64,000 nt of DNA from Parcubacteria group bacterium. GTDB lineage: Bacteria > Patescibacteriota > Minisyncoccia > UBA6257 > UBA11618. The stretch spans positions 15,389 through 79,388 of the forward strand of contig CALRGO010000003.1 in assembly GCA_943357895.1 (NCBI GenBank). The letters are read 5' to 3'. A program made the position numbers and the translations under genes. The stretch's first letter is position 1, and each line of letters begins with the position of its first letter. Positions 4,523-15,266 of the stretch are shown in pieces. The notes under the pieces are model-generated. The model made no database searches. It saw nothing but the letters and a program-made list of their open reading frames with translations, and was not told the DNA's origin.

Positions 4523-4804
4523 TTATTGCGAAAGTATATCGAGTTTCTCGCCTTTCTTCAAGGTAACGGTCGCCTTTTTAAAGCTAGGGCGCATGCCCAT
4601 AACGCGGCCACGGCGACGTTCCTTCGGGCGCGTGTTAATAACGTGTACCTGAGTGACATGTACCTTATATTCCGCCTCGATTGCCTTTTTAACCTCGGAC
4701 TTCGTCGTATCGCCCGCAACCACGAACGTGTACTTGCCTTGCGCAGACATTGCCGCGGTCTTTTCGGTGATAAACGGCTTTTTGATTATAAATAGGTTTG
4801 CCAT
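4523..4804 (-). CDS. rplW: 50S ribosomal protein L23
   Basis: MANLFIIKKPFITEKTA... is L23-like. Start trimmed to internal Met at 4804. Confidence 0.85.
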   Translation of the reverse strand: MANLFIIKKPFITEKTAAMSAQGKYTFVVAGDTTKSEVKKAIEAEYKVHVTQVHVINTRPKERRRGRVMGMRPSFKKATVTLKKGEKLDILSQ

Positions 4805-4811
4805 GTTTTTG

Positions 4812-5405
4812 TTATTTGATTCCGAGGGCAGCCTCACGGTCGATAAGGATGGTCTTAAACTTCAGTAAGTCATGAACGTTCAACGATTGTGGGTCGAGTG
4901 CCTTGACCTTTTGGATGTTTGCCGACGCGCGGAAGATATCCTTATTGCCCGTTGCAGGAATAAGGAGTGTGCCCTTCGGCACCCACTTTAATTCGCGTGT
5001 GCGTGGCTCCTTAATAGCTAACGTGTCGATGACTTTAAACTCGCCGTCGGCAATCTTTTTAGAAAGCGCAACATACACGCCTGCCTTTATCATTTTCTTG
5101 TTTATCTTTTGCGTGTAGTCGCGATCGTTGCGCGGACCGAATGTGGCGCCGCCACCCTTCCATAGTGGTGAGCGAGTCGAACCATGGCGAGCGCGACCCG
5201 TACCTTTTTGGCGCCACGGCTTTTTACCACCACCCGATACTTCGTCGCGTTGCTTTGTGTGCGCTAAAGGCTGGCGGCGGTTTGCAGCTGCGGCGACGAC
5301 GATTTGGTGAATTAAATCAGGGTTCCATGCGCGGCCGAAGATTGCGTCAGATACTTCGACGTCCCCTACCTGTTTCATAGCCCTGTCGTATACGGGAAGT
5401 TTCAT
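4812..5405 (-). CDS. rplD: 50S ribosomal protein L4
   Basis: 197 aa with the L4 motif GTGRARHGS. Confidence 0.9.
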   Translation of the reverse strand: MKLPVYDRAMKQVGDVEVSDAIFGRAWNPDLIHQIVVAAAANRRQPLAHTKQRDEVSGGGKKPWRQKGTGRARHGSTRSPLWKGGGATFGPRNDRDYTQKINKKMIKAGVYVALSKKIADGEFKVIDTLAIKEPRTRELKWVPKGTLLIPATGNKDIFRASANIQKVKALDPQSLNVHDLLKFKTILIDREAALGIK

Positions 5406-5409
5406 GGTT

Positions 5410-5832
5410 TTATGCGCTTATTTCGATACGGCCCTTTTTCGGCCCGGGGACTGCACCGCGCAGGTATACCTCGCGGGATTCAGGCTTTACTTCGACTACT
5501 TTCAAGTTCTTAATAGTCACGCGGATGACGCCCATGTGGCCGGCCATGCGGAGACCCGGAATAACGCGCTGGGCGGCAGTGTTACCAATGGACCCGGGGG
5601 CGCGAAAGCGGTTCTTTTGGCCGTGAGTCTTAGGCCCGCCGTGAAAGTCGTGGCGCTTTACCACACCTGCGAAGCCATGGCCCTTCGTAATGCCCGCGAC
5701 GTTTACCAAGGCGTTTTCGGTAAGGACGGAAAGGTCGCTACCCTCCGCCATCTTTAAGATCGTTACGGGCACCATAATATCGCCCTTCCAGATCTGCGTC
5801 ATATTCGACTTGGTGCCTATCAACTTGAACAT
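5410..5832 (-). CDS. rplC: 50S ribosomal protein L3 (short form, ~140 aa)
   Basis: MFKLIGTKSNMTQIW... and the L3 core motifs GFAGVVKRHDFHGGPKTHGQKNRFRAPGSIG and GLRMAGHMG are present. It lacks the usual internal insertion. Start chosen by alignment to L3 N-termini; 5841 is an alternative. Confidence 0.8.
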   Translation of the reverse strand: MFKLIGTKSNMTQIWKGDIMVPVTILKMAEGSDLSVLTENALVNVAGITKGHGFAGVVKRHDFHGGPKTHGQKNRFRAPGSIGNTAAQRVIPGLRMAGHMGVIRVTIKNLKVVEVKPESREVYLRGAVPGPKKGRIEISA

Positions 5833-5860
5833 AGTATTCATTGGTTGCAACAGTTTTTTA

Positions 5861-5889
5861 ATAGTACACGAAGATGCTTAATTTCGCAA
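5861..5889 (-). promoter_or_regulatory. Candidate sigma70-like promoter for rplC (TTGCGA-N17-TACTAT)
   Basis: The minus-strand sequence reads ttgcgaaattaagcatcttcgtgTACTAT, 19-28 nt upstream of the rplC start. It lies downstream of the rpsJ terminator. Confidence 0.4.
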
Positions 5890-5931
5890 GCCGCATAAAA
5901 GCCCATGGATACTGGGGTTTTGATGTTGTTT

Positions 5932-5963
5932 TTGACAACGTGTAAAAAGTGCATGATTATTAA
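5932..5963 (+). promoter_or_regulatory. Candidate promoter for the divergent small ORF (TTGACA-N17-GATTAT/TATTAA)
   Basis: TTGACA at 5932-5937 with -10-like hexamers 17-20 nt downstream, ~60 nt upstream of an AAGGAG SD. Confidence 0.35.
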
Positions 5964-6025
5964 TACTTAGTAACCTGCAGGGCGTTCCTGCGGGCATCTA
6001 CCACCAAAAACCAAGGAGACTTGGC

Positions 6026-6310
6026 ATGCGAACCAACCGATATAGAGTATTCATCTTTCCTCATGCCGATGATCGGGATACGGAAAACGGCAACCACGCC
6101 CTGCGCCACGCCGGATCAGAAGAAATTGTCACGTTCATCTCTATAAGCGACGCTCTTAAGGAGATGAACGAACGGCAAATTGACTATGGAGTATTCACCG
6201 AGATCATTGACCTCGATACAGGAAATTCCGTACTCGAAACGACCGACAAAGGACGGACATGGCGTACGCTAGCCTGCGCCCACAAGCCCGCTAAGTCCGT
6301 CCCCGCCTGA
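6026..6310 (+). CDS. Hypothetical acidic 94-aa protein, divergent gene between rpsJ and rplC
   Basis: Strong SD AAGGAG 8 nt before the ATG, own candidate promoter, and an intrinsic terminator downstream. I recognise no domain. Confidence 0.55.
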   Translation: MRTNRYRVFIFPHADDRDTENGNHALRHAGSEEIVTFISISDALKEMNERQIDYGVFTEIIDLDTGNSVLETTDKGRTWRTLACAHKPAKSVPA

Positions 6311-6339
6311 GGCGAGTCTACCTCCGCCTTAGGCACTAA

Positions 6340-6372
6340 CCCCGTCGCATAAGGATGTGCGCGGGGTTTTTT
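6340..6372 (+). terminator. Intrinsic terminator after the 94-aa ORF
   Basis: GC hairpin ccccg(t)cgca...tgcgcgggg followed by TTTTTT. Confidence 0.6.
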
Positions 6373-6421
6373 ACACCCGCCTTCGTAAAAACCTCAGGCG
6401 AGGTAAGGTTTTTTAGCTAAC

Positions 6422-6451
6422 AAAAAACCGCATATTATTGCGGTATTTTTT
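6422..6451 (-). terminator. Bidirectional intrinsic terminator immediately downstream of rpsJ
   Basis: AAAAAA-accgca-tattat-tgcggt-TTTTTT lies 15 nt after the rpsJ stop, inside what is normally one continuous S10 operon. Confidence 0.6.
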
Positions 6452-6465
6452 GTTAGAGAAAGCCC

Positions 6466-6792
6466 TTACATCATCTTTATCTCGATATCGACGCCCGCGG
6501 GAAGGCTTATTTTTGAAAGCGCCTCGACGATTGCGGGGTTGATATTCATTATGTCGATGAGGCGCTTGTGCACCCGCAGCTCGAACTGTTCACGTGAATT
6601 CTTATGGACAAAGGTAGAACGGTTAACCGTGTACTTTTGGATCTCCGTCGGCAAGGGAACGGGGCCGATTACTTCAGCATCGAGGCGCCGCGCGGTTTCT
6701 ACTATCTGCCGCGCGGAGCTGTCGATGAGCTTATGGTCGTACGCCTTTATGCGCAGGCGCAACTTTTCCACTTTTTGCTTTTCTTTGACCAT
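6466..6792 (-). CDS. rpsJ: 30S ribosomal protein S10
   Basis: 108 aa, highly conserved S10 sequence ([13 protein letters not shown]...). Confidence 0.92.
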
Positions 6793-6825: not shown

Positions 6826-8025
6826 TTATTTTATGATCTTCGTGATGACACCAGCGCCCACCGTCTTACCGCCTTCGCGGATGGCGAAACGCTGCTTGTC
6901 TTCGAGCGCGACCGGCATGATGAGCTTCACGTTAAGCTTAATCGTGTCGCCCGGCATGACCATTTCCGTACCTTCCGGCAAAATGCATTCACCCGTAACA
7001 TCAGTGGTACGCATATAGAACTGAGGCTTATATCCCTTGAAGAATGGGGTGTGGCGACCGCCTTCTTCCTTGCTCAAAACGTAGATTTCTGTTTCGAACT
7101 CGGTGTGCGGCAAAACCGTTCCGGGCTTCGCCAAAACCTGTCCGCGCTCCACGTCTTCTTTCTTCAAACCGCGGAGAAGGATGCCGACGTTATCACCGGC
7201 GCGGCCTTCGTCTAAAAGCTTGTTGAACATTTCGACGCCCGTTACAATCGTCTTTTGGGTCGTACGGAGGCCGACAATCTCGATTTCTTCATTAACCTTA
7301 ATAATACCGCGCTCGATACGGCCGGTTACGACGGTTCCCCTGCCTTCAATCGAGAAAATGTCTTCTACCGGCATAAGGAACGGCTTGTCAATTTCGCGCT
7401 TCGGCTCCGGGATGTATTCGTCGAGCGCTTTCACGAGGTCTAAAATCGGCTGGCAGGCAGGGTCGTTAAGATCCGGCGCATCCAAGGCTTTCAAAGCAGA
7501 GCCACGGATGACGGGAATACTATCGCCAGGGAATTCATACTTTTTCAAGAGTTCGCGGACTTCGGCCTCGACGAGGTCAATAAGCTCCGGATCATCCACC
7601 ATGTCCACCTTGTTCAAAAACACTACAAGGGCAGGGACGCCGACCTGACGGGCAAGCAAAATGTGCTCGCGGGTCTGGGGCATCGGGCCGTCAGCGGCAG
7701 AAACAACAATAACCGCACCGTCCATCTGGGCGGCACCGGTGATCATGTTCTTGATGTAGTCAGCGTGGCCAGGGGCGTCGATGTGCGCGTAGTGGCGCTT
7801 TTCCGACTCGTATTCCGAGTGGTGGATGGAAATGGTGATACCACGGGCCTTTTCTTCAGGGCTCTTGTCGAGCTCGTCAACGGTAACTTCCTTGCCGGCG
7901 AAGCCCTTCATGTGAAGAACGTGCGTAATAGCCGCGGTAAGGGTGGACTTGCCGTGGTCGACGTGACCGATAGTGCCGACGTTAACGTGCGGCTTATTGC
8001 GTTCGAATTTTGCTTTTTCTGCCAT
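6826..8025 (-). CDS. tuf: Elongation factor Tu
   Basis: 399 aa with [10 protein letters not shown]-loop and full EF-Tu domains. Confidence 0.97.
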
Positions 8026-8087: not shown

Positions 8088-8116
8088 AGCATACCAAGAG
8101 GCTTAAGGGGTGTCAA
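8088..8116 (-). promoter_or_regulatory. Candidate promoter for tuf (TTGACA-N17-TATGCT)
   Basis: The minus strand reads TTGACAccccttaagcctcttggTATGCT, starting 9 nt after the stop of the upstream Hint-domain gene. Confidence 0.5.
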
Positions 8117-8124
8117 TATGATTA

Positions 8125-9036
8125 TTATTTAAGCGTACTGCCCATTACAATGCCGTTTGCCCAGTAATAACCGGTTTCGCCTGCAGGCAAAATGTCGTAT
8201 GTTGCCGAACCTTCGTAAGCCTTCAAAACGACGCTTCTGACTATCGAGCCGTCATATGCTTCGCCCACCTTCAAGTCGCCCACCGTGCGCCCGTCTGCCG
8301 TTGGGTGAGGAGCGGATACGTCGAGCGTGCGGCCGTCTGCTAATACAAGGTGCACGACGCGGTGATTAATGGCTGGAATGCGCGAAACTTTCAAAAGGGT
8401 GCGGACGACACGGTTGCCGGTAGCGTCCGCAGTCCAAATAATATCGCCCACTTTAAGGCTGGTAACAGCTACATCGCCAATAGGAGTAGAAATTTTAGAG
8501 GTAAAAGAGAGACACTTCCAGCATAGTGTTGCTGTATCTGATGCGGAAATACAAATACCACCTGATCCCTGAGCACAGGATCTACATCCCGTAGTAGTAT
8601 TACAATTTCTAGCAGAAACGGTACTGCAGTCTACTGAGACACTACAAGAAGCGATGCAAGCGCCATTACTAAAAGTTGTATTTGATCCGCAACATTCGTC
8701 TCCAGTACAAGACCCGCCTCTTCCAACTGGCCCGCGCGACGTAGGACTTATTCCGTTAGCAGCAGGATCGGCTGACCCCGGTTGAGCGACTGATTCGCGC
8801 TGCACCGGAGCGCTCGTAACGCCCGCACTAGAGGGATAATTATTTACGGGAACCGGATTAGGCGTTCTAAATCCGAGCCAATTTAAAAAATTCACATAAG
8901 TCTGCCCCAATAAAGATTGCCTTTGTATTAAAACCCGCTGAGGATAGACCGTCTGCGCCGAAGCAAAAGGAATACCGACGCATGTAACGACTAATCCCAT
9001 ACTAAAAATACATACTATTTTATTTATTTTTTTCAT
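8125..9036 (-). CDS. Secreted cysteine-rich protein with C-terminal Hint (Hedgehog/intein-type, Hint_2-like) domain
   Basis: N-terminal signal peptide (MKKINKIVCIFSMGLVVTCVGIPFASA). A Cys-dense region follows (GGSCTGDECCGS...NCNTTTGCRSCAQGSGGICIS...LCWKC). The C-terminal ~130 aa begin CLSFTSKISTPIGDVAVTSLKVGDIIWT and end TYDILPAGETGYYWANGIVMGS, matching the Hint_2 pattern. Confidence 0.8.
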   Translation of the reverse strand: MKKINKIVCIFSMGLVVTCVGIPFASAQTVYPQRVLIQRQSLLGQTYVNFLNWLGFRTPNPVPVNNYPSSAGVTSAPVQRESVAQPGSADPAANGISPTSRGPVGRGGSCTGDECCGSNTTFSNGACIASCSVSVDCSTVSARNCNTTTGCRSCAQGSGGICISASDTATLCWKCLSFTSKISTPIGDVAVTSLKVGDIIWTADATGNRVVRTLLKVSRIPAINHRVVHLVLADGRTLDVSAPHPTADGRTVGDLKVGEAYDGSIVRSVVLKAYEGSATYDILPAGETGYYWANGIVMGSTLK

Positions 9037-9074: not shown

Positions 9075-9102
9075 AAAAAACCGCCCCGTAGGGCGATTTT
9101 TT
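9075..9102 (-). terminator. Bidirectional intrinsic terminator downstream of fusA
   Basis: AAAAAA-cgccc-cgta-gggcg-TTTTTT, 5 nt after the fusA stop. Confidence 0.65.
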
Positions 9103-9106
9103 AAGA

Positions 9107-11212
9107 TTATTTCTTCCGGCCTTCGATGATAGCTAAGGCAACATTAGCAGGAACCTCATCATAATGATCGAATTCCATAGTAAATGAGGCTCTTCCCTGC
9201 GTTATAGAGCGGAGGGTTGTCGCGTACCCGAACATTTCGGAAAGCGGCACCTGCGAGTCAATAACCTTCGTGTTAAAGCGGTCGTTCATCGCCTCGATGC
9301 GGCCACGCTTGGAGCTGATGTCGCCTGTGATATCGCCCAAGAATTCCGTGGGCGCAATGACTTGGATTTTCATAATAGGCTCGAGTAAAATCGGCTTGGA
9401 GTTCTTAACACCCTCTTGGAAGCCCATAGAAGCGGCGATTTTGAAGGCAGCTTCAGACGAGTCCACATCGTGGTACGAGCCGTCGTAGAGCGTAACCTTC
9501 AAGTCCACAAGCGGGAAGCCGGCAACAACGCCACGCGTAACAGCCTCGTTAACGCCTTTCTCGACCGCTGGAATGAATTCGTTGGGGATCGATCCACCCT
9601 TGATTGCGTTCACGAAGAGGAAGCCCGCGCCGCGCTCCTGCGACTCAATCTTAAGCCGTACGTGGCCGTACTGGCCGCGACCGCCGGACTGCTTGATATA
9701 CTTACCCTCTGCTTCCGCGGAACCCTTAATAGTTTCCTTATAGGCTACCTGCGGGCGACCCATTTTTGCATCCACGTTAAATTCGCGGCGCATACGGTCT
9801 ACCAAAACGTCTAAGTGCAGTTCGCCCATGCCGGAGATAATAGTATCGCCGGTGTCAGGGTCGCCTGATACGCGGAACGTTGGGTCTTCTTCCGCCAAGC
9901 GGTGCAAGGCCATACCCATTCTTTCTTGGTCGGCTTTCGTTTTAGGCTCAACACGTGCGGAGATAACAGGCTCAGGGAAGTCGATCTTTTCTAATATCAA
10001 CGGCTTTTCAGGGTCGCAAAGCGTGTCGCCAGTCGAAGTATCTTTCAAGCCCACTAAACCGCCAATTTCTCCGGCGAAGATTTCGTCTATTTCTTCACGA
10101 TGGTTGGCGTGCAAGCGAATAATACGGCCAATGCGCTCCTGATGGCCTTTAGTGGAATTCAATACGTACGTACCTTTCTTGAGCGTGCCGGAATACACGC
10201 GGAAAAAGGTGAGCGCGCCCACGAACGGGTCGGCGGCGACTTTGAAAGCCAATGAGGCAAACGGCTCATCTTCTTTCGGATAGCGGAGTATTTCTGCGCC
10301 TGTTTCCATATCAATACCCTTTGTCGGCGGCAAGTCCTTTGGCGACGGCAAGTAATCAACGACGGCGTCGAGCACAAACTGCACACCCTTATTCTTTAAG
10401 GCGGAGCCGGTAACAACAGGGATTATTTTAAGCGCTAAAGTCGCTTTACGAAGTGCGGCTTTTAACTCAGCTACGGTTATTTCCTTCTTCTCAAAGAATT
10501 TGTTGAGCAATACGTCGTCTGTCTCAACAATCTTTTCGAGAAGCGCGTCATGCGCCATCTTAGCCTCTTCCTTCATGTTTTCGGGAATCTCGTGTTCCGT
10601 AATTATCTCCCCTTTCTCGCCCTCAAAATGGAAGGCTTTCATACGCAAAAGGTCGATTAAGCCCACGAAGTCGGCTTCGGCGCCGATCGGCAGCTGAATA
10701 GGAATTGCGTGCGGGTTAAGGCGGTCGCGGATAGACGCTAAGCTGTTTTCGAAGCTCGCGCCCATACGGTCGAGTTTGTTTAAAAAGCAGATGCGCGGCA
10801 CACCGTAGTCGTCAGCATAGTGCCAGTTCGTCTCCGTCTGCGGCTCTACACCAGAAACGGAGTCGAATACCACAACCGCACCGTCCAAAACGCGCAAAGA
10901 GCGCTTTACCTCAACGGTAAAGTCGATGTGGCCAGGGGTGTCGATGAGGTTTATGCGGTGTTCCGCCGTTTTATCGTCTTTGGCATATGTCGGCGTCCAA
11001 AAGCAGGTTGTTGCGGCGGCGGTAATGGTAATACCGCGCTCACGCTCTTGCTCCATCCAGTCCATTACCGTGGTGCCGTCGTGCACTTCACCAATTTTAT
11101 GCGAAACTCCCGTGTAAAATAAAATACGCTCGGAAACGGTTGTTTTTCCGGCGTCAATATGGGCAACGATGCCAATATCACGCACCTTTTCAATTGGGTA
11201 CTGCCGTGCCAT
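9107..11212 (-). CDS. fusA: Elongation factor G
   Basis: 701 aa with AHIDAGKTT P-loop and EF-G domains II-V. Confidence 0.97.
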   Translation of the reverse strand: MARQYPIEKVRDIGIVAHIDAGKTTVSERILFYTGVSHKIGEVHDGTTVMDWMEQERERGITITAAATTCFWTPTYAKDDKTAEHRINLIDTPGHIDFTVEVKRSLRVLDGAVVVFDSVSGVEPQTETNWHYADDYGVPRICFLNKLDRMGASFENSLASIRDRLNPHAIPIQLPIGAEADFVGLIDLLRMKAFHFEGEKGEIITEHEIPENMKEEAKMAHDALLEKIVETDDVLLNKFFEKKEITVAELKAALRKATLALKIIPVVTGSALKNKGVQFVLDAVVDYLPSPKDLPPTKGIDMETGAEILRYPKEDEPFASLAFKVAADPFVGALTFFRVYSGTLKKGTYVLNSTKGHQERIGRIIRLHANHREEIDEIFAGEIGGLVGLKDTSTGDTLCDPEKPLILEKIDFPEPVISARVEPKTKADQERMGMALHRLAEEDPTFRVSGDPDTGDTIISGMGELHLDVLVDRMRREFNVDAKMGRPQVAYKETIKGSAEAEGKYIKQSGGRGQYGHVRLKIESQERGAGFLFVNAIKGGSIPNEFIPAVEKGVNEAVTRGVVAGFPLVDLKVTLYDGSYHDVDSSEAAFKIAASMGFQEGVKNSKPILLEPIMKIQVIAPTEFLGDITGDISSKRGRIEAMNDRFNTKVIDSQVPLSEMFGYATTLRSITQGRASFTMEFDHYDEVPANVALAIIEGRKK

Positions 11213-11224
11213 GTATTCTTAAAC

Positions 11225-11692
11225 TTACCAGCCGAAGTGAGCAAATGCGCGATTCGCCTCTGCCATACGGTGCATGTCGAGCTTCTTTTTTACTGCCGTG
11301 CCTTCGTTGTTCGAGGCTGCAAAAAGTTCGTCCGCAAGCTTTTCAGCCATCGGCTTGCCCTTCTTGGCTGCTGCGGTAGCGATAATCCAACGGGCAGCTA
11401 ACATGTACTGCCGTTCGGGGCGCACGGGGCGCGGCACTTGGTAGTTAGCACCACCCACACGGCGACTTGCAACTTCAACAGCCGGCGAAATGTTCTCAAA
11501 AGCCTTTTCAAAAACCTCTACGGCGTTGCCCTTATGCTTCTTTTCGATGCGGTCAAACGCGTCGTACATAATCTTTTCGGCAACGGCTTTCTTACCGCCC
11601 TCCATTAAGTAGTTGATAAACCGGCCCACAGCAACATTCTGGTACTTGAGGTCTCCGGTATGTTCGCGTTTGTAATTACGTTTCTTTCTCAT
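11225..11692 (-). CDS. rpsG: 30S ribosomal protein S7
   Basis: 155 aa, conserved S7 sequence. Between rpsL and fusA. Confidence 0.92.
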   Translation of the reverse strand: MRKKRNYKREHTGDLKYQNVAVGRFINYLMEGGKKAVAEKIMYDAFDRIEKKHKGNAVEVFEKAFENISPAVEVASRRVGGANYQVPRPVRPERQYMLAARWIIATAAAKKGKPMAEKLADELFAASNNEGTAVKKKLDMHRMAEANRAFAHFGW

Positions 11693-11704
11693 GATATTTT
11701 AGGA

Positions 11705-12130
11705 TTATGCTGCTTTCTTGGCAGACGGGCGCTTTGCGCCGTACTTCGAGCGCTGTTGCTTACGATCCTTTACGCCGCTTGTGTCGAGTACGCCGCGGAT
11801 GATGTGGTAGCGCACACCTGGCAAGTCTTTAACCTTACCGCCACGGATAACGACTACGGAGTGTTCTTGCAAGTTATGGCCTTCGCCCGGAATGTAGGCG
11901 GTGACTTCGGTACCATTTGTAAGGCGGATACGCGCGACTTTACGGATAGCCGAGTTCGGCTTCTTAGGCGTCACCGTAAACACCTTCACGCATACGCCGC
12001 GTTTAAAAGGCGATACGGAATGAACCGGCTTGTTTAAGATGTTGTTGAAATACCGCAAAAGCGCGGGTGACTTAGACTTCACCTTTACGGACTTGCGTCC
12101 CTTGCGAACTAATTGTCGTGTCGTCGGCAT
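11705..12130 (-). CDS. rpsL: 30S ribosomal protein S12
   Basis: [13 protein letters not shown]... with the PNSA..K motif. A TTGCAA-N17-TACTAT promoter-like sequence ends 10 nt before the ATG. Confidence 0.92.
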
Positions 12131-15173: not shown

Positions 15174-15258
15174 GGAAGGGTCGCATAGAGGCCTAGTGCA
15201 CCATCTTGGAAAGGTGGCATACCGAAAGGTATCGAGAGTTCGAATCTCTCCCCTTCCG
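15174..15258 (+). tRNA. tRNA-Ser (anticodon GGA), class II with long variable arm
   Basis: Hand-folded. Perfect 7-bp acceptor stem GGAAGGG/CCCTTCC and a 3-bp D stem. Anticodon loop TTGGAAA (anticodon GGA). Variable-arm hairpin ATACC-GAAA-GGTAT. T arm GAGAG-TTCGAAT-CTCTC with discriminator G. No CCA is encoded. Confidence 0.85.
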
Positions 15259-15266
15259 CAAATAAT

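Follow-up and report, generated by a model that had tools for sequence, protein, structure and literature searches.

The S10-spc cluster is a textbook frozen operon, and rpsJ-rplC-rplD-... is among the most conserved co-transcribed units of bacteria. How is this unit expressed in a genome in which its first two genes are held apart by a gene on the opposite strand? The question is raised by a 64-kb stretch of a Parcubacteria group bacterium (contig CALRGO010000003.1, positions 15,389 to 79,388; hereafter the window, meaning this whole stretch), where the str-S10-spc supercluster runs on the minus strand in the order rpsL, rpsG, fusA, a 303-amino-acid (aa) open reading frame (ORF), tuf, rpsJ, spacer, rplC, rplD and onward. 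rpsJ (uS10) and rplC (uL3) retain their same-strand order, and the 624-nt gap between them holds an opposite-strand gene for a 94-aa protein, here called the small gene. The closest named relatives of the window genome are Parcubacteria/Paceibacteria and 'Candidatus Harrisonbacteria' metagenome-assembled genomes, and within this clade the flanking proteins are 98-100% (S10), 90-95% (L3) and 85-98% (L4) identical to those of the window. Comparison of the related loci (numbered with the prefix L) suggests that the 624-bp spacer is probably a conserved boundary module of a genus-level Paceibacteria clade (Parcubacteria, 'Harrisonbacteria'-like).

Predicted separation of rpsJ from rplC

A first, sequence-only reading of this stretch had placed a bidirectional hairpin plus U-tract terminator just past rpsJ, and this element is present as described: the sequence at 6417-6456 folds alike on both strands (-17.8 and -17.1 kcal/mol, z = -6.8 and -6.2), and equivalent hairpins stand at the same place in L089, L091, L098 and L008. 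The G+C-rich stem-loop and U-tract of an intrinsic terminator are found at 6340-6372 on the plus strand and at 6417-6456 on both, and both elements are conserved in relatives. Among the related Paceibacteria loci that have both rpsJ and rplC, 48 of 68 carry a terminator-like hairpin and T-run at most 200 nt past rpsJ, compared with 3% of shuffled spacers, and the hairpin is present even where the spacer is 65-135 nt long and contains no gene. Since these gene-less short spacers are included, the terminator-like break between rpsJ and rplC is clade-wide and predates the small gene; the earlier idea that the inserted gene split the operon is thus not borne out. The comparison of spacers that had been suggested revealed the ORF conserved at the same site.

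On its other side, rpsJ lies directly downstream of tuf on the same strand, the str-linked arrangement, and no hairpin with a T-run was found in the 33-nt gap between the two genes. A predicted promoter that matches the consensus at 10 of 12 positions precedes tuf (Table 1), and rpsJ therefore appears to be grouped with tuf instead of rplC. The fusA-tuf junction is also split, with a bidirectional terminator after fusA at about 9079-9100. Because tuf and rplC have their own promoters, and fusA and rpsJ their own terminators, the predicted transcription units are rpsL-rpsG-fusA, the 303-aa ORF, tuf-rpsJ, the small gene, and rplC onward.

The rplC promoter TTGCGA-N17-TACTAT, likewise proposed in the sequence-only reading, is found at 5861-5889; its hexamers and exact 17-nt spacing are kept in 11 loci, in which the spacer sequence varies and the -10 box reads TACTAT, TAGTAT or TATTAT. 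Both this promoter and that of the small gene have the features of a sigma-70-type promoter at the sequence level, namely conserved hexamers and a spacer of 16-18 nt. In the window, TACTAT occurs within 45 nt upstream of the start codon at 9 of 63 gene starts, where 0.8 would be expected, and this more than 10-fold enrichment points to TACTAT as the typical -10 box of the genome. It often stands 10-17 nt ahead of the ATG (for example at the starts 12130, 15052, 20490, 43235, 43260 and 44477), which suggests widespread leaderless or very-short-leader mRNAs. The 19 nt between the -10 box of rplC and its ATG contain no Shine-Dalgarno (SD) sequence and do not vary across the clade.

At the sequence level, transcription is thus predicted to halt past rpsJ and to begin anew ahead of rplC: the terminator at 6417-6456, its counterparts in 48 of 68 relatives, the conserved rplC promoter and the tuf-rpsJ unit all support the proposal that S10 is transcribed apart from L3 onward. 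The S10-spc boundary would accordingly be movable in bacteria, as it is in plastids, with a cut after rpsJ across many Paceibacteria that leaves rpsJ with tuf. Operon predictions and expression proxies built on ribosomal proteins should not presume rpsJ-rplC co-transcription in these organisms.

The small gene and its protein family

The 94-aa protein belongs to a previously unannotated family. A word-indexed search retrieved one homolog, 71% identical, and an exhaustive profile search added five representatives of 91-96 aa (E 1e-11 to 1e-18). Profile search of a database clustered at 90% extended the family to 25 clusters of 90-96 aa, 24 of them besides that of the window; 11 residues are invariant among them, none of the 25 is named and none carries a Pfam domain; a metagenome scan for additional loci yielded only two. 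In every pair of family members with unsaturated dS, dN/dS is 0.10-0.49, and the substitutions between the window and L001 show a third-position excess (18/12/47 at codon positions 1/2/3). The 94-aa ORF is therefore a genuine gene under purifying selection, and the view that the spacer encodes a lineage-specific protein gains support from the 24 further clusters, the constant position of the gene and these ratios. Of the original description of an acidic ORF at 6026-6310 with an AAGGAG SD, a TTGACA-based promoter and its own terminator, all the sequence elements stand; the acidity is just mild in the window (pI 5.7), the family ranging from mildly to strongly acidic. The small protein evolves fast, being 40-71% identical to that of the window where L4 is 85-98% identical.

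Searches of Pfam, NCBIfam, PADLOC, PHROGs and PDB sequences returned a single Asp-box motif only, and no similarity to any ribosomal protein family was detected. This one recognizable feature is an Asp-box-like motif TTDxGxTW (TTDKGRTW in the window). The protein thus resembles BNR/Asp-box proteins (PF02012) in a C-terminal (S/T)-T-D-x-G-x-T-W stretch, the only part matched by sialidase and Ycf48 structures (PDB matches are restricted to residues 63-86). It differs from them in having one motif and no multi-blade propeller, and it falls below the Pfam threshold (best E 0.049, 12 bits against a cutoff of 27 for PF02012/PF13088), so that a shared β-hairpin motif is indicated in place of family membership. 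The MC3 conflict-system family was also considered and dismissed as not significant: seven family members reached 12-17 bits, below the cutoff of 23, in matches that spanned 45 of 159 positions. An AF2 model of moderate confidence (pLDDT 63.5) predicts a small mixed strand/helix domain with a β-β-α-β-β-β core, and a structural neighbor search with this model found none.

The position of the gene is constant. It adjoins rplC and diverges from it in all 11 protein clusters with visible context, and rpsJ stands on its far side in all 10 clusters whose sequence extends that far; unless an additional gene lies in between, the ORF start is 182-199 nt from the rplC start. In the next lineage out (L009 and L010; L4 75-83%), a 124-aa ORF occupies the same site in the same orientation. 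Its alignment to the profile of the family spans 75 columns (hhalign probability 68%, E 5e-5), and its 5′ untranslated region (UTR) is similar, which gives moderate support to its being a remote homolog.

The spacer also takes up other genes. Sequence identity between L008 (1360-2248) and the window breaks off precisely past the rplC -35 box, where another module takes over with its own promoter, strong SD, 88-aa ORF and terminator. The 88-aa protein begins MRRYIMFLYS..., and the same gene stands in tandem with the 94-aa gene in L095 (2506-2772); homology to the family was unsupported (hhalign probability 0.6%). Additional unrelated genes lie in the spacers of L088, L091, L095 and L097, those of L091 and L097 on the plus strand (222 and 122 aa) and that of L088 on the rpsJ strand. 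All the opposite-strand cassette genes have a strong SD, and the gene on the ribosomal-protein strand has a leaderless layout. The rpsJ-rplC spacer thus appears to be a cassette hot spot, a boundary that became a landing site where fast-turnover small genes gather.

Translation signals and mRNA structure

Any GGAG, GAGG or AGGA at -20 to -4 is found in only 8 of 69 long ORFs of the window, several of the eight being spurious, and no SD-like 4-mer was found upstream of rpsJ, rplC, rplD, tuf, fusA, rpsG or rpsL. Of the true starts in the window, essentially only that of the small gene is preceded by a 6-mer SD at optimal spacing, and this SD is the clearest canonical one. In relatives this is AAGGAG(G), 7-8 nt before the ATG, with GGAG in 8 of 9 lineages and GGAA in L001. 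The window genome thus appears almost SD-free, and yet the small gene keeps a strong, conserved SD.

The other signals of the small-gene mRNA are conserved as well. Mean pairwise identity is 63% in the 5′ flank (aligned for nine lineages) and 74% in the 3′ flank, whereas the synonymous-site difference pS is 0.43-0.84, near saturation; the regulatory elements are thus conserved well beyond synonymous-site divergence. In the nine lineages the promoter has an invariant TTGACA, a 17-18-nt spacer and an nAyTAT -10 box, and the transcription start region reads TTAG(A/T)(A/T)AC. The 5′ UTR contains a hairpin with a conserved CUGC/GCAG stem and slight covariation, which is followed by the conserved motif CCUACCACC / GCCUACCACC.

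At the 3′ end, a hairpin that takes the stop codon into its 5′ arm shows compensatory changes in 4 of 8 pairs, with 90% of cells paired, and 0 of 500 shuffles matched its covariation score. Its 10-nt loop is AGUCCACCUC in most lineages and carries CCACCUC. The loop resembles the anti-SD as given by the general bacterial consensus, in which the 16S 3′ tail has CACCUCC at its core. The terminator that follows is near-invariant across the clade (of its nine pairs six are invariant and two show compensatory changes, and 98.8% of cells are paired). Both structures are assigned to the plus strand because their G-U pairs fit that strand, and together they fold with -35.3 kcal/mol (z = -5.0). With a covariance model of the 65-nt 3′ UTR, the downstream flank of each family member scored 72-90 bits, and nothing elsewhere in 700 kb of related loci reached 26 bits. 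A long-range pairing of the SD with the 3′ loop was considered and rejected: whole-mRNA folds of three lineages disagree, and the complementarity is just 4-5 bp.

The most unusual features were absent from the sequence-only reading: the scarcity of SDs in the genome, the hairpin in the 3′ UTR with its anti-SD-like loop, and the turnover of cassettes. To our knowledge, no genetics exist for the candidate phyla radiation (Patescibacteria), where a strong SD with an anti-SD-like 3′ hairpin in an otherwise SD-free genome could provide a handle on translation initiation.

Proposed explanation and alternatives

We consider it reasonably likely that the spacer is a module in which convergent terminators and back-to-back divergent promoters accompany a real small-protein gene that would be transcribed alone and that carries post-transcriptional signals of its own. 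The promoter ahead of tuf would drive tuf-rpsJ, and this transcript would end at the intrinsic terminators just past rpsJ. rplC and the later genes would be driven by TTGCGA-17-TACTAT through an SD-less leader of ~13-19 nt. The -35 boxes of the two divergent promoters lie back to back, 42 bp apart, and TTGACA-17-GATTAT would make a ~400-nt monocistronic mRNA for a 90-96-aa protein. The convergent terminators would insulate tuf-rpsJ and the small gene from one another, the shared divergent promoter region would couple expression of the small gene to the rplC operon, and translation of the small gene would rely on SD/anti-SD pairing, unlike that of nearly all other window genes. The divergent promoter, the SD/anti-SD features and the location of the gene faintly hint that the small protein might act in or on the translation apparatus. 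A more specific version of this idea, which we regard as distinctly improbable, is that the protein is a lineage-specific translation factor whose synthesis reports free 16S anti-SD, with the 3′ CCACCUC hairpin serving as a competitor, decoy or protein-binding mimic in an autoregulatory loop. In a genome whose mRNAs nearly all lack an SD or a leader, the small-gene mRNA would on this view be the only one to need SD/anti-SD pairing.

Several observations weigh against this boundary module. L001, the closest relative with the small gene, lacks the rpsJ-proximal bidirectional terminator and has one hairpin only between the convergent genes. L008, a close relative (S10 99%, L3 94%), has lost the 94-aa gene, which is therefore dispensable. 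The conserved position is weak evidence for functional linkage, since the clade is narrow (L4 85-98%) and recent common ancestry partly explains it. No informative homolog or fold match for the protein emerged from the sequence, profile and structure searches, and the pLDDT of its model is only 63.5. Generic promoter and terminator scans of the 5-kb region show no overall enrichment over shuffles (terminator-like sites number 8 where 6.4 are expected, and promoter-like sites 10 where 5.1 are), and the rplC promoter, which matches only 8 of 12 consensus positions, was for that reason not listed by the generic scan. The case thus depends on comparative evidence: the sites exceed chance because they are conserved in relatives and because TACTAT is more than 10-fold enriched upstream of start codons. 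The unenriched scans would also fit a chance ORF in a long non-coding spacer with fortuitous promoter and terminator look-alikes; such an accident is vanishingly improbable, being refuted by the 25 homologous clusters (which also exclude a lack of ORF conservation in relatives), by dN/dS well below 1 and by the conserved, covarying signals.

The remaining alternatives overlap with the boundary module, and our confidences need not total one. If the terminators were leaky, rpsJ could still be co-transcribed with rplC across the antisense small gene, as in a noncontiguous operon or excludon. The rplC promoter would then merely supplement this transcription, and the overlapping transcripts could control one another, for instance by being cut by a double-strand-specific RNase. 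Such operons are defined by the layout seen here, an opposite-strand gene enclosed by genes that keep their order on one strand, as rpsJ...rplC do (PMC11034616), L001 has its single hairpin between rpsJ and the small gene, and short-spacer relatives show no obvious promoter after the post-rpsJ hairpin, so that the hairpin there must be an attenuator, not a full stop. Such co-transcription is unlikely in the window, and so is the attendant mutual regulation: two to three successive hairpin and U-tract elements, one of them bidirectional, stand between the convergent genes, the rplC promoter is strongly conserved with the typical -10 box of the genome, and the G-U pairs of the conserved hairpins fit the plus strand only.

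Two further alternatives concern the small gene itself. It could be an accessory or conflict cassette unrelated to the ribosome, for example immunity- or antitoxin-like, gathered at a permissive operon boundary by recombination between conserved flanks. The fast divergence of the protein relative to L4, the swap in L008 that ends exactly at the rplC -35 box, the unrelated extra genes of L088, L091, L095 and L097, the ParE toxin pair and other ORFs in the spacers of distant relatives, and the strong SD of all opposite-strand cassette genes, unlike core genes, would all be expected of such a cassette. This origin is possible but doubtful, as there is no consistently associated partner gene and no match to a defense or phage family. 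The gene is also kept in every lineage examined of the clade with the 94-aa ORF except L008, with the remote homolog at the same site in L009 and L010, and conservation is higher in its promoter and UTRs than in the protein, which would be unusual for a drifting cassette. Alternatively, a structured mRNA or a 3′ UTR-derived small RNA could be the main product and the ORF secondary (a dual-function RNA), with the CCACCUC loop pairing with SD-like sequences or titrating a 16S 3′-end-binding factor. No other part of the locus is as conserved as the 3′ UTR (mean identity 74%), whose element is specific to the small gene; the loop is conserved, the stem covaries, and the near-invariance of the terminator exceeds what a generic terminator needs. 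However, the ORF is clearly under protein-level selection, with 11 invariant residues in 25 clusters, and a search for targets with extended complementarity gave none (CCACCTCC and its complement occur once in the window, at chance level). Both the RNA as main product and the proposed action of its loop thus seem quite unlikely to us.

Relation to known systems

S10 is also placed among elongation-factor genes in cyanobacteria (the Spirulina str operon) and in archaea. Glaucophyte plastids have the conserved clusters rps12-rps7-tufA-rps10 and rpl3-rpl23-rpl2-... (PMC6330054). As in these plastids, rpsJ of the window follows tuf immediately (33 nt), apart from rplC, and the supercluster breaks between S10 and L3; unlike in plastids, the two clusters are still adjacent on the same strand, with only terminators, a promoter and the opposite-strand gene between them and no relocation. 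The S10 operon of E. coli has an L4-responsive leader/attenuator (PMC3616713). As there, a terminator hairpin precedes the bulk of the operon in the window, but its place is downstream of rpsJ instead of upstream, rplC is read from a predicted promoter of its own through a very short leader, and the contiguity of the E. coli type is lost through the 624-nt gap and the opposite-strand gene. Upstream of rpsJ, where the gap to tuf is 33 nt, no Rfam match to an L4-binding leader was obtained, either at the gathering threshold across the window or at E up to 5 within 5700-6600.

In noncontiguous operons and excludons, an opposite-strand gene is embedded within one functional operon (PMC11034616, PMC7154746). 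The opposite-strand gene between rpsJ and rplC recalls this layout, whereas the terminators and internal promoter of the window predict separate transcripts and not an overlapping operon transcript. Bacteroidia have bL38, a lineage-specific small ribosomal protein co-transcribed with bL28 and bL33 (PMC11851116). The small protein is similarly clade-restricted and encoded amid ribosomal-protein genes, but its gene lies on the opposite strand with its own signals, is fast-evolving and has been lost in one relative.

The SD-blind genomes of Flavobacteriia have one strong-SD gene, rpsU (bS21), which is autoregulated via anti-SD availability (PMC9976891, PMC7797042, PMC13000453). The first hallmark of this type, an SD-poor genome with a strong, conserved SD in one small gene, is found in the window, where that gene likewise lies among translation genes. 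In contrast to bS21, however, the small protein is acidic instead of basic and has no bS21 similarity, and rpsU has nothing that corresponds to the anti-SD-like hairpin of the 3′ UTR. Because the small protein is not bS21, the locus falls outside the rpsU/bS21 class, and the proposed autoregulatory loop would be analogous to that circuit and molecularly distinct from it. bS21 is often absent in Parcubacteria (PMC9297842); a motif search for it in the window gave no match, which is uninformative at 64 kb.

Further features of the locus

Table 1. Positions of the genes and signals at and around the rpsJ-rplC spacer (window coordinates).
Feature	Position	Strand	Remarks
rplC (uL3), 143-aa short form	5410-5841	-	heads rplC-rplD-rplW-rplB... 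unit; internal region missing
SD-less rplC leader	5842-5860	-	19 nt between -10 box and ATG, invariant across clade; palindrome GTTGCAAC
rplC promoter TTGCGA (5889-5884)-N17-TACTAT (5866-5861)	5861-5889	-	hexamers and exact 17-nt spacing kept in 11 loci, spacer sequence variable
A-tract, short hairpin and T-tract between the back-to-back promoters	5897-5921		sequence conserved; stem not kept in L001 and L089
Small-gene promoter TTGACA (5932-5937)-N17-GATTAT (5955-5960)	5932-5960	+	10/12 matches, one of the two best promoter matches in 5 kb
Predicted 5′ UTR	5966-6025	+	hairpin 5974-5994, then conserved motif CUACCACC at 5998-6005
Canonical SD AAGGAG	6013-6018	+	7 nt ahead of ATG
94-aa protein gene	6026-6310	+	previously unannotated family; homologs, dN/dS, AF2 model
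Stop-codon hairpin	6307-6332	+	UGA in 5′ arm; loop 6315-6324, AGUCUACCUC in the window
Intrinsic terminator of small gene (CCCCGUCGC...GCGCGGGG then U6)	6340-6372	+	stem 6340-6366, U-run 6367-6372; short A-rich linker ahead
Weak hairpin and T-run between the two terminators	6374-6412	+	-7.2 kcal/mol, z -1.4, alone not significant; sequence common to L097
Bidirectional intrinsic terminator closing tuf-rpsJ (predicted), backup stop for small gene	6417-6456	both	core stem 6427-6444, A-run 6422-6427, T-run 6445-6451
rpsJ (uS10), 108 aa	6466-6792	-	no SD; Pfam Ribosomal_S10, E 1e-34; stop codon 6466-6468
tuf (EF-Tu)	6826-8025	-	33 nt upstream of rpsJ, no terminator between; Pfam annotation of identical locus L002
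tuf-rpsJ promoter TTGACA-N17-TATGCT, TG ahead of -10 box	8088-8116	-	10/12 consensus matches; between 303-aa ORF and tuf start 8025
303-aa secreted Hint-like ORF	8125-9036	-	
fusA	9107-11212	-	
rpsG	11225-11692	-	
rpsL	11705-12130	-	

The 19-nt rplC leader contains a perfect 8-nt palindrome, GTTGCAAC, at 5844-5851 (minus strand), which may serve as an operator or help to determine where translation of an SD-less mRNA begins. The conserved element between the back-to-back promoters (5897-5921) probably serves either as two UP-like elements or as a weak insulator. The element between the two terminators (6374-6412, CCCGCCTTCG...CAGGCGAGGTAAGGTTTT) is almost identical in L097 (~2590-2630), and related forms (..CTTCG-hairpin-CTTCGAGGG.TAAGGTTTT) occur in L091 and L095 and in two copies in L008; as a repeat, it has no further copy within the 64-kb window.

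Other spacers and junctions of the related loci have their own inhabitants. A family of 222-255 aa without a Pfam match (motif LMVH.YGF...LLGGW) lies in the spacers of L091 (4118-4786), L009 (~4960-5727) and L010 (5036-5743), and in each of these lineages it is encoded opposite to rpsJ and preceded by a strong SD. Among distant Paceibacteria, the spacer of L039 (4937-5424) holds a ParE toxin (E 1e-6) and a small upstream ORF, those of L034 (~5605-6033), L035 (~4792-5136) and L064 (~6140-6559) a conserved, weakly TrpR-like ORF of 114-142 aa, and that of L075 (4325-7989) a 3.6-kb insert with a 367-aa ORF. At the fusA-tuf junction, the 303-aa ORF of the window has a signal peptide, a Cys-rich region, a weak Hint_2 match and its own TTGCTT-N18-TAGTAT promoter; relatives hold other genes there, such as ParB-like and PaaX-like genes in L088.

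The uL3 of the window lacks an internal region of ~60 aa relative to typical bacterial L3, a short form shared by many related loci and already described for the candidate phyla radiation (PMC9297842). We considered whether the small ORF could be this missing segment and rejected the idea, as many gene-less relatives also have a short uL3; the absence of L3 similarity and the known occurrence of short uL3 in the candidate phyla radiation further rule it out. An Rfam scan of the whole window gave nothing at the gathering threshold, and at E up to 5 the region 5700-6600 returned only sub-threshold hairpin look-alikes (RNAI, Leu leader), which were dismissed as chance. Neither the window nor the related loci contain an rRNA gene. 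The only tRNA in the window is tRNA-Ser(GGA), at 15174-15259 on the plus strand.

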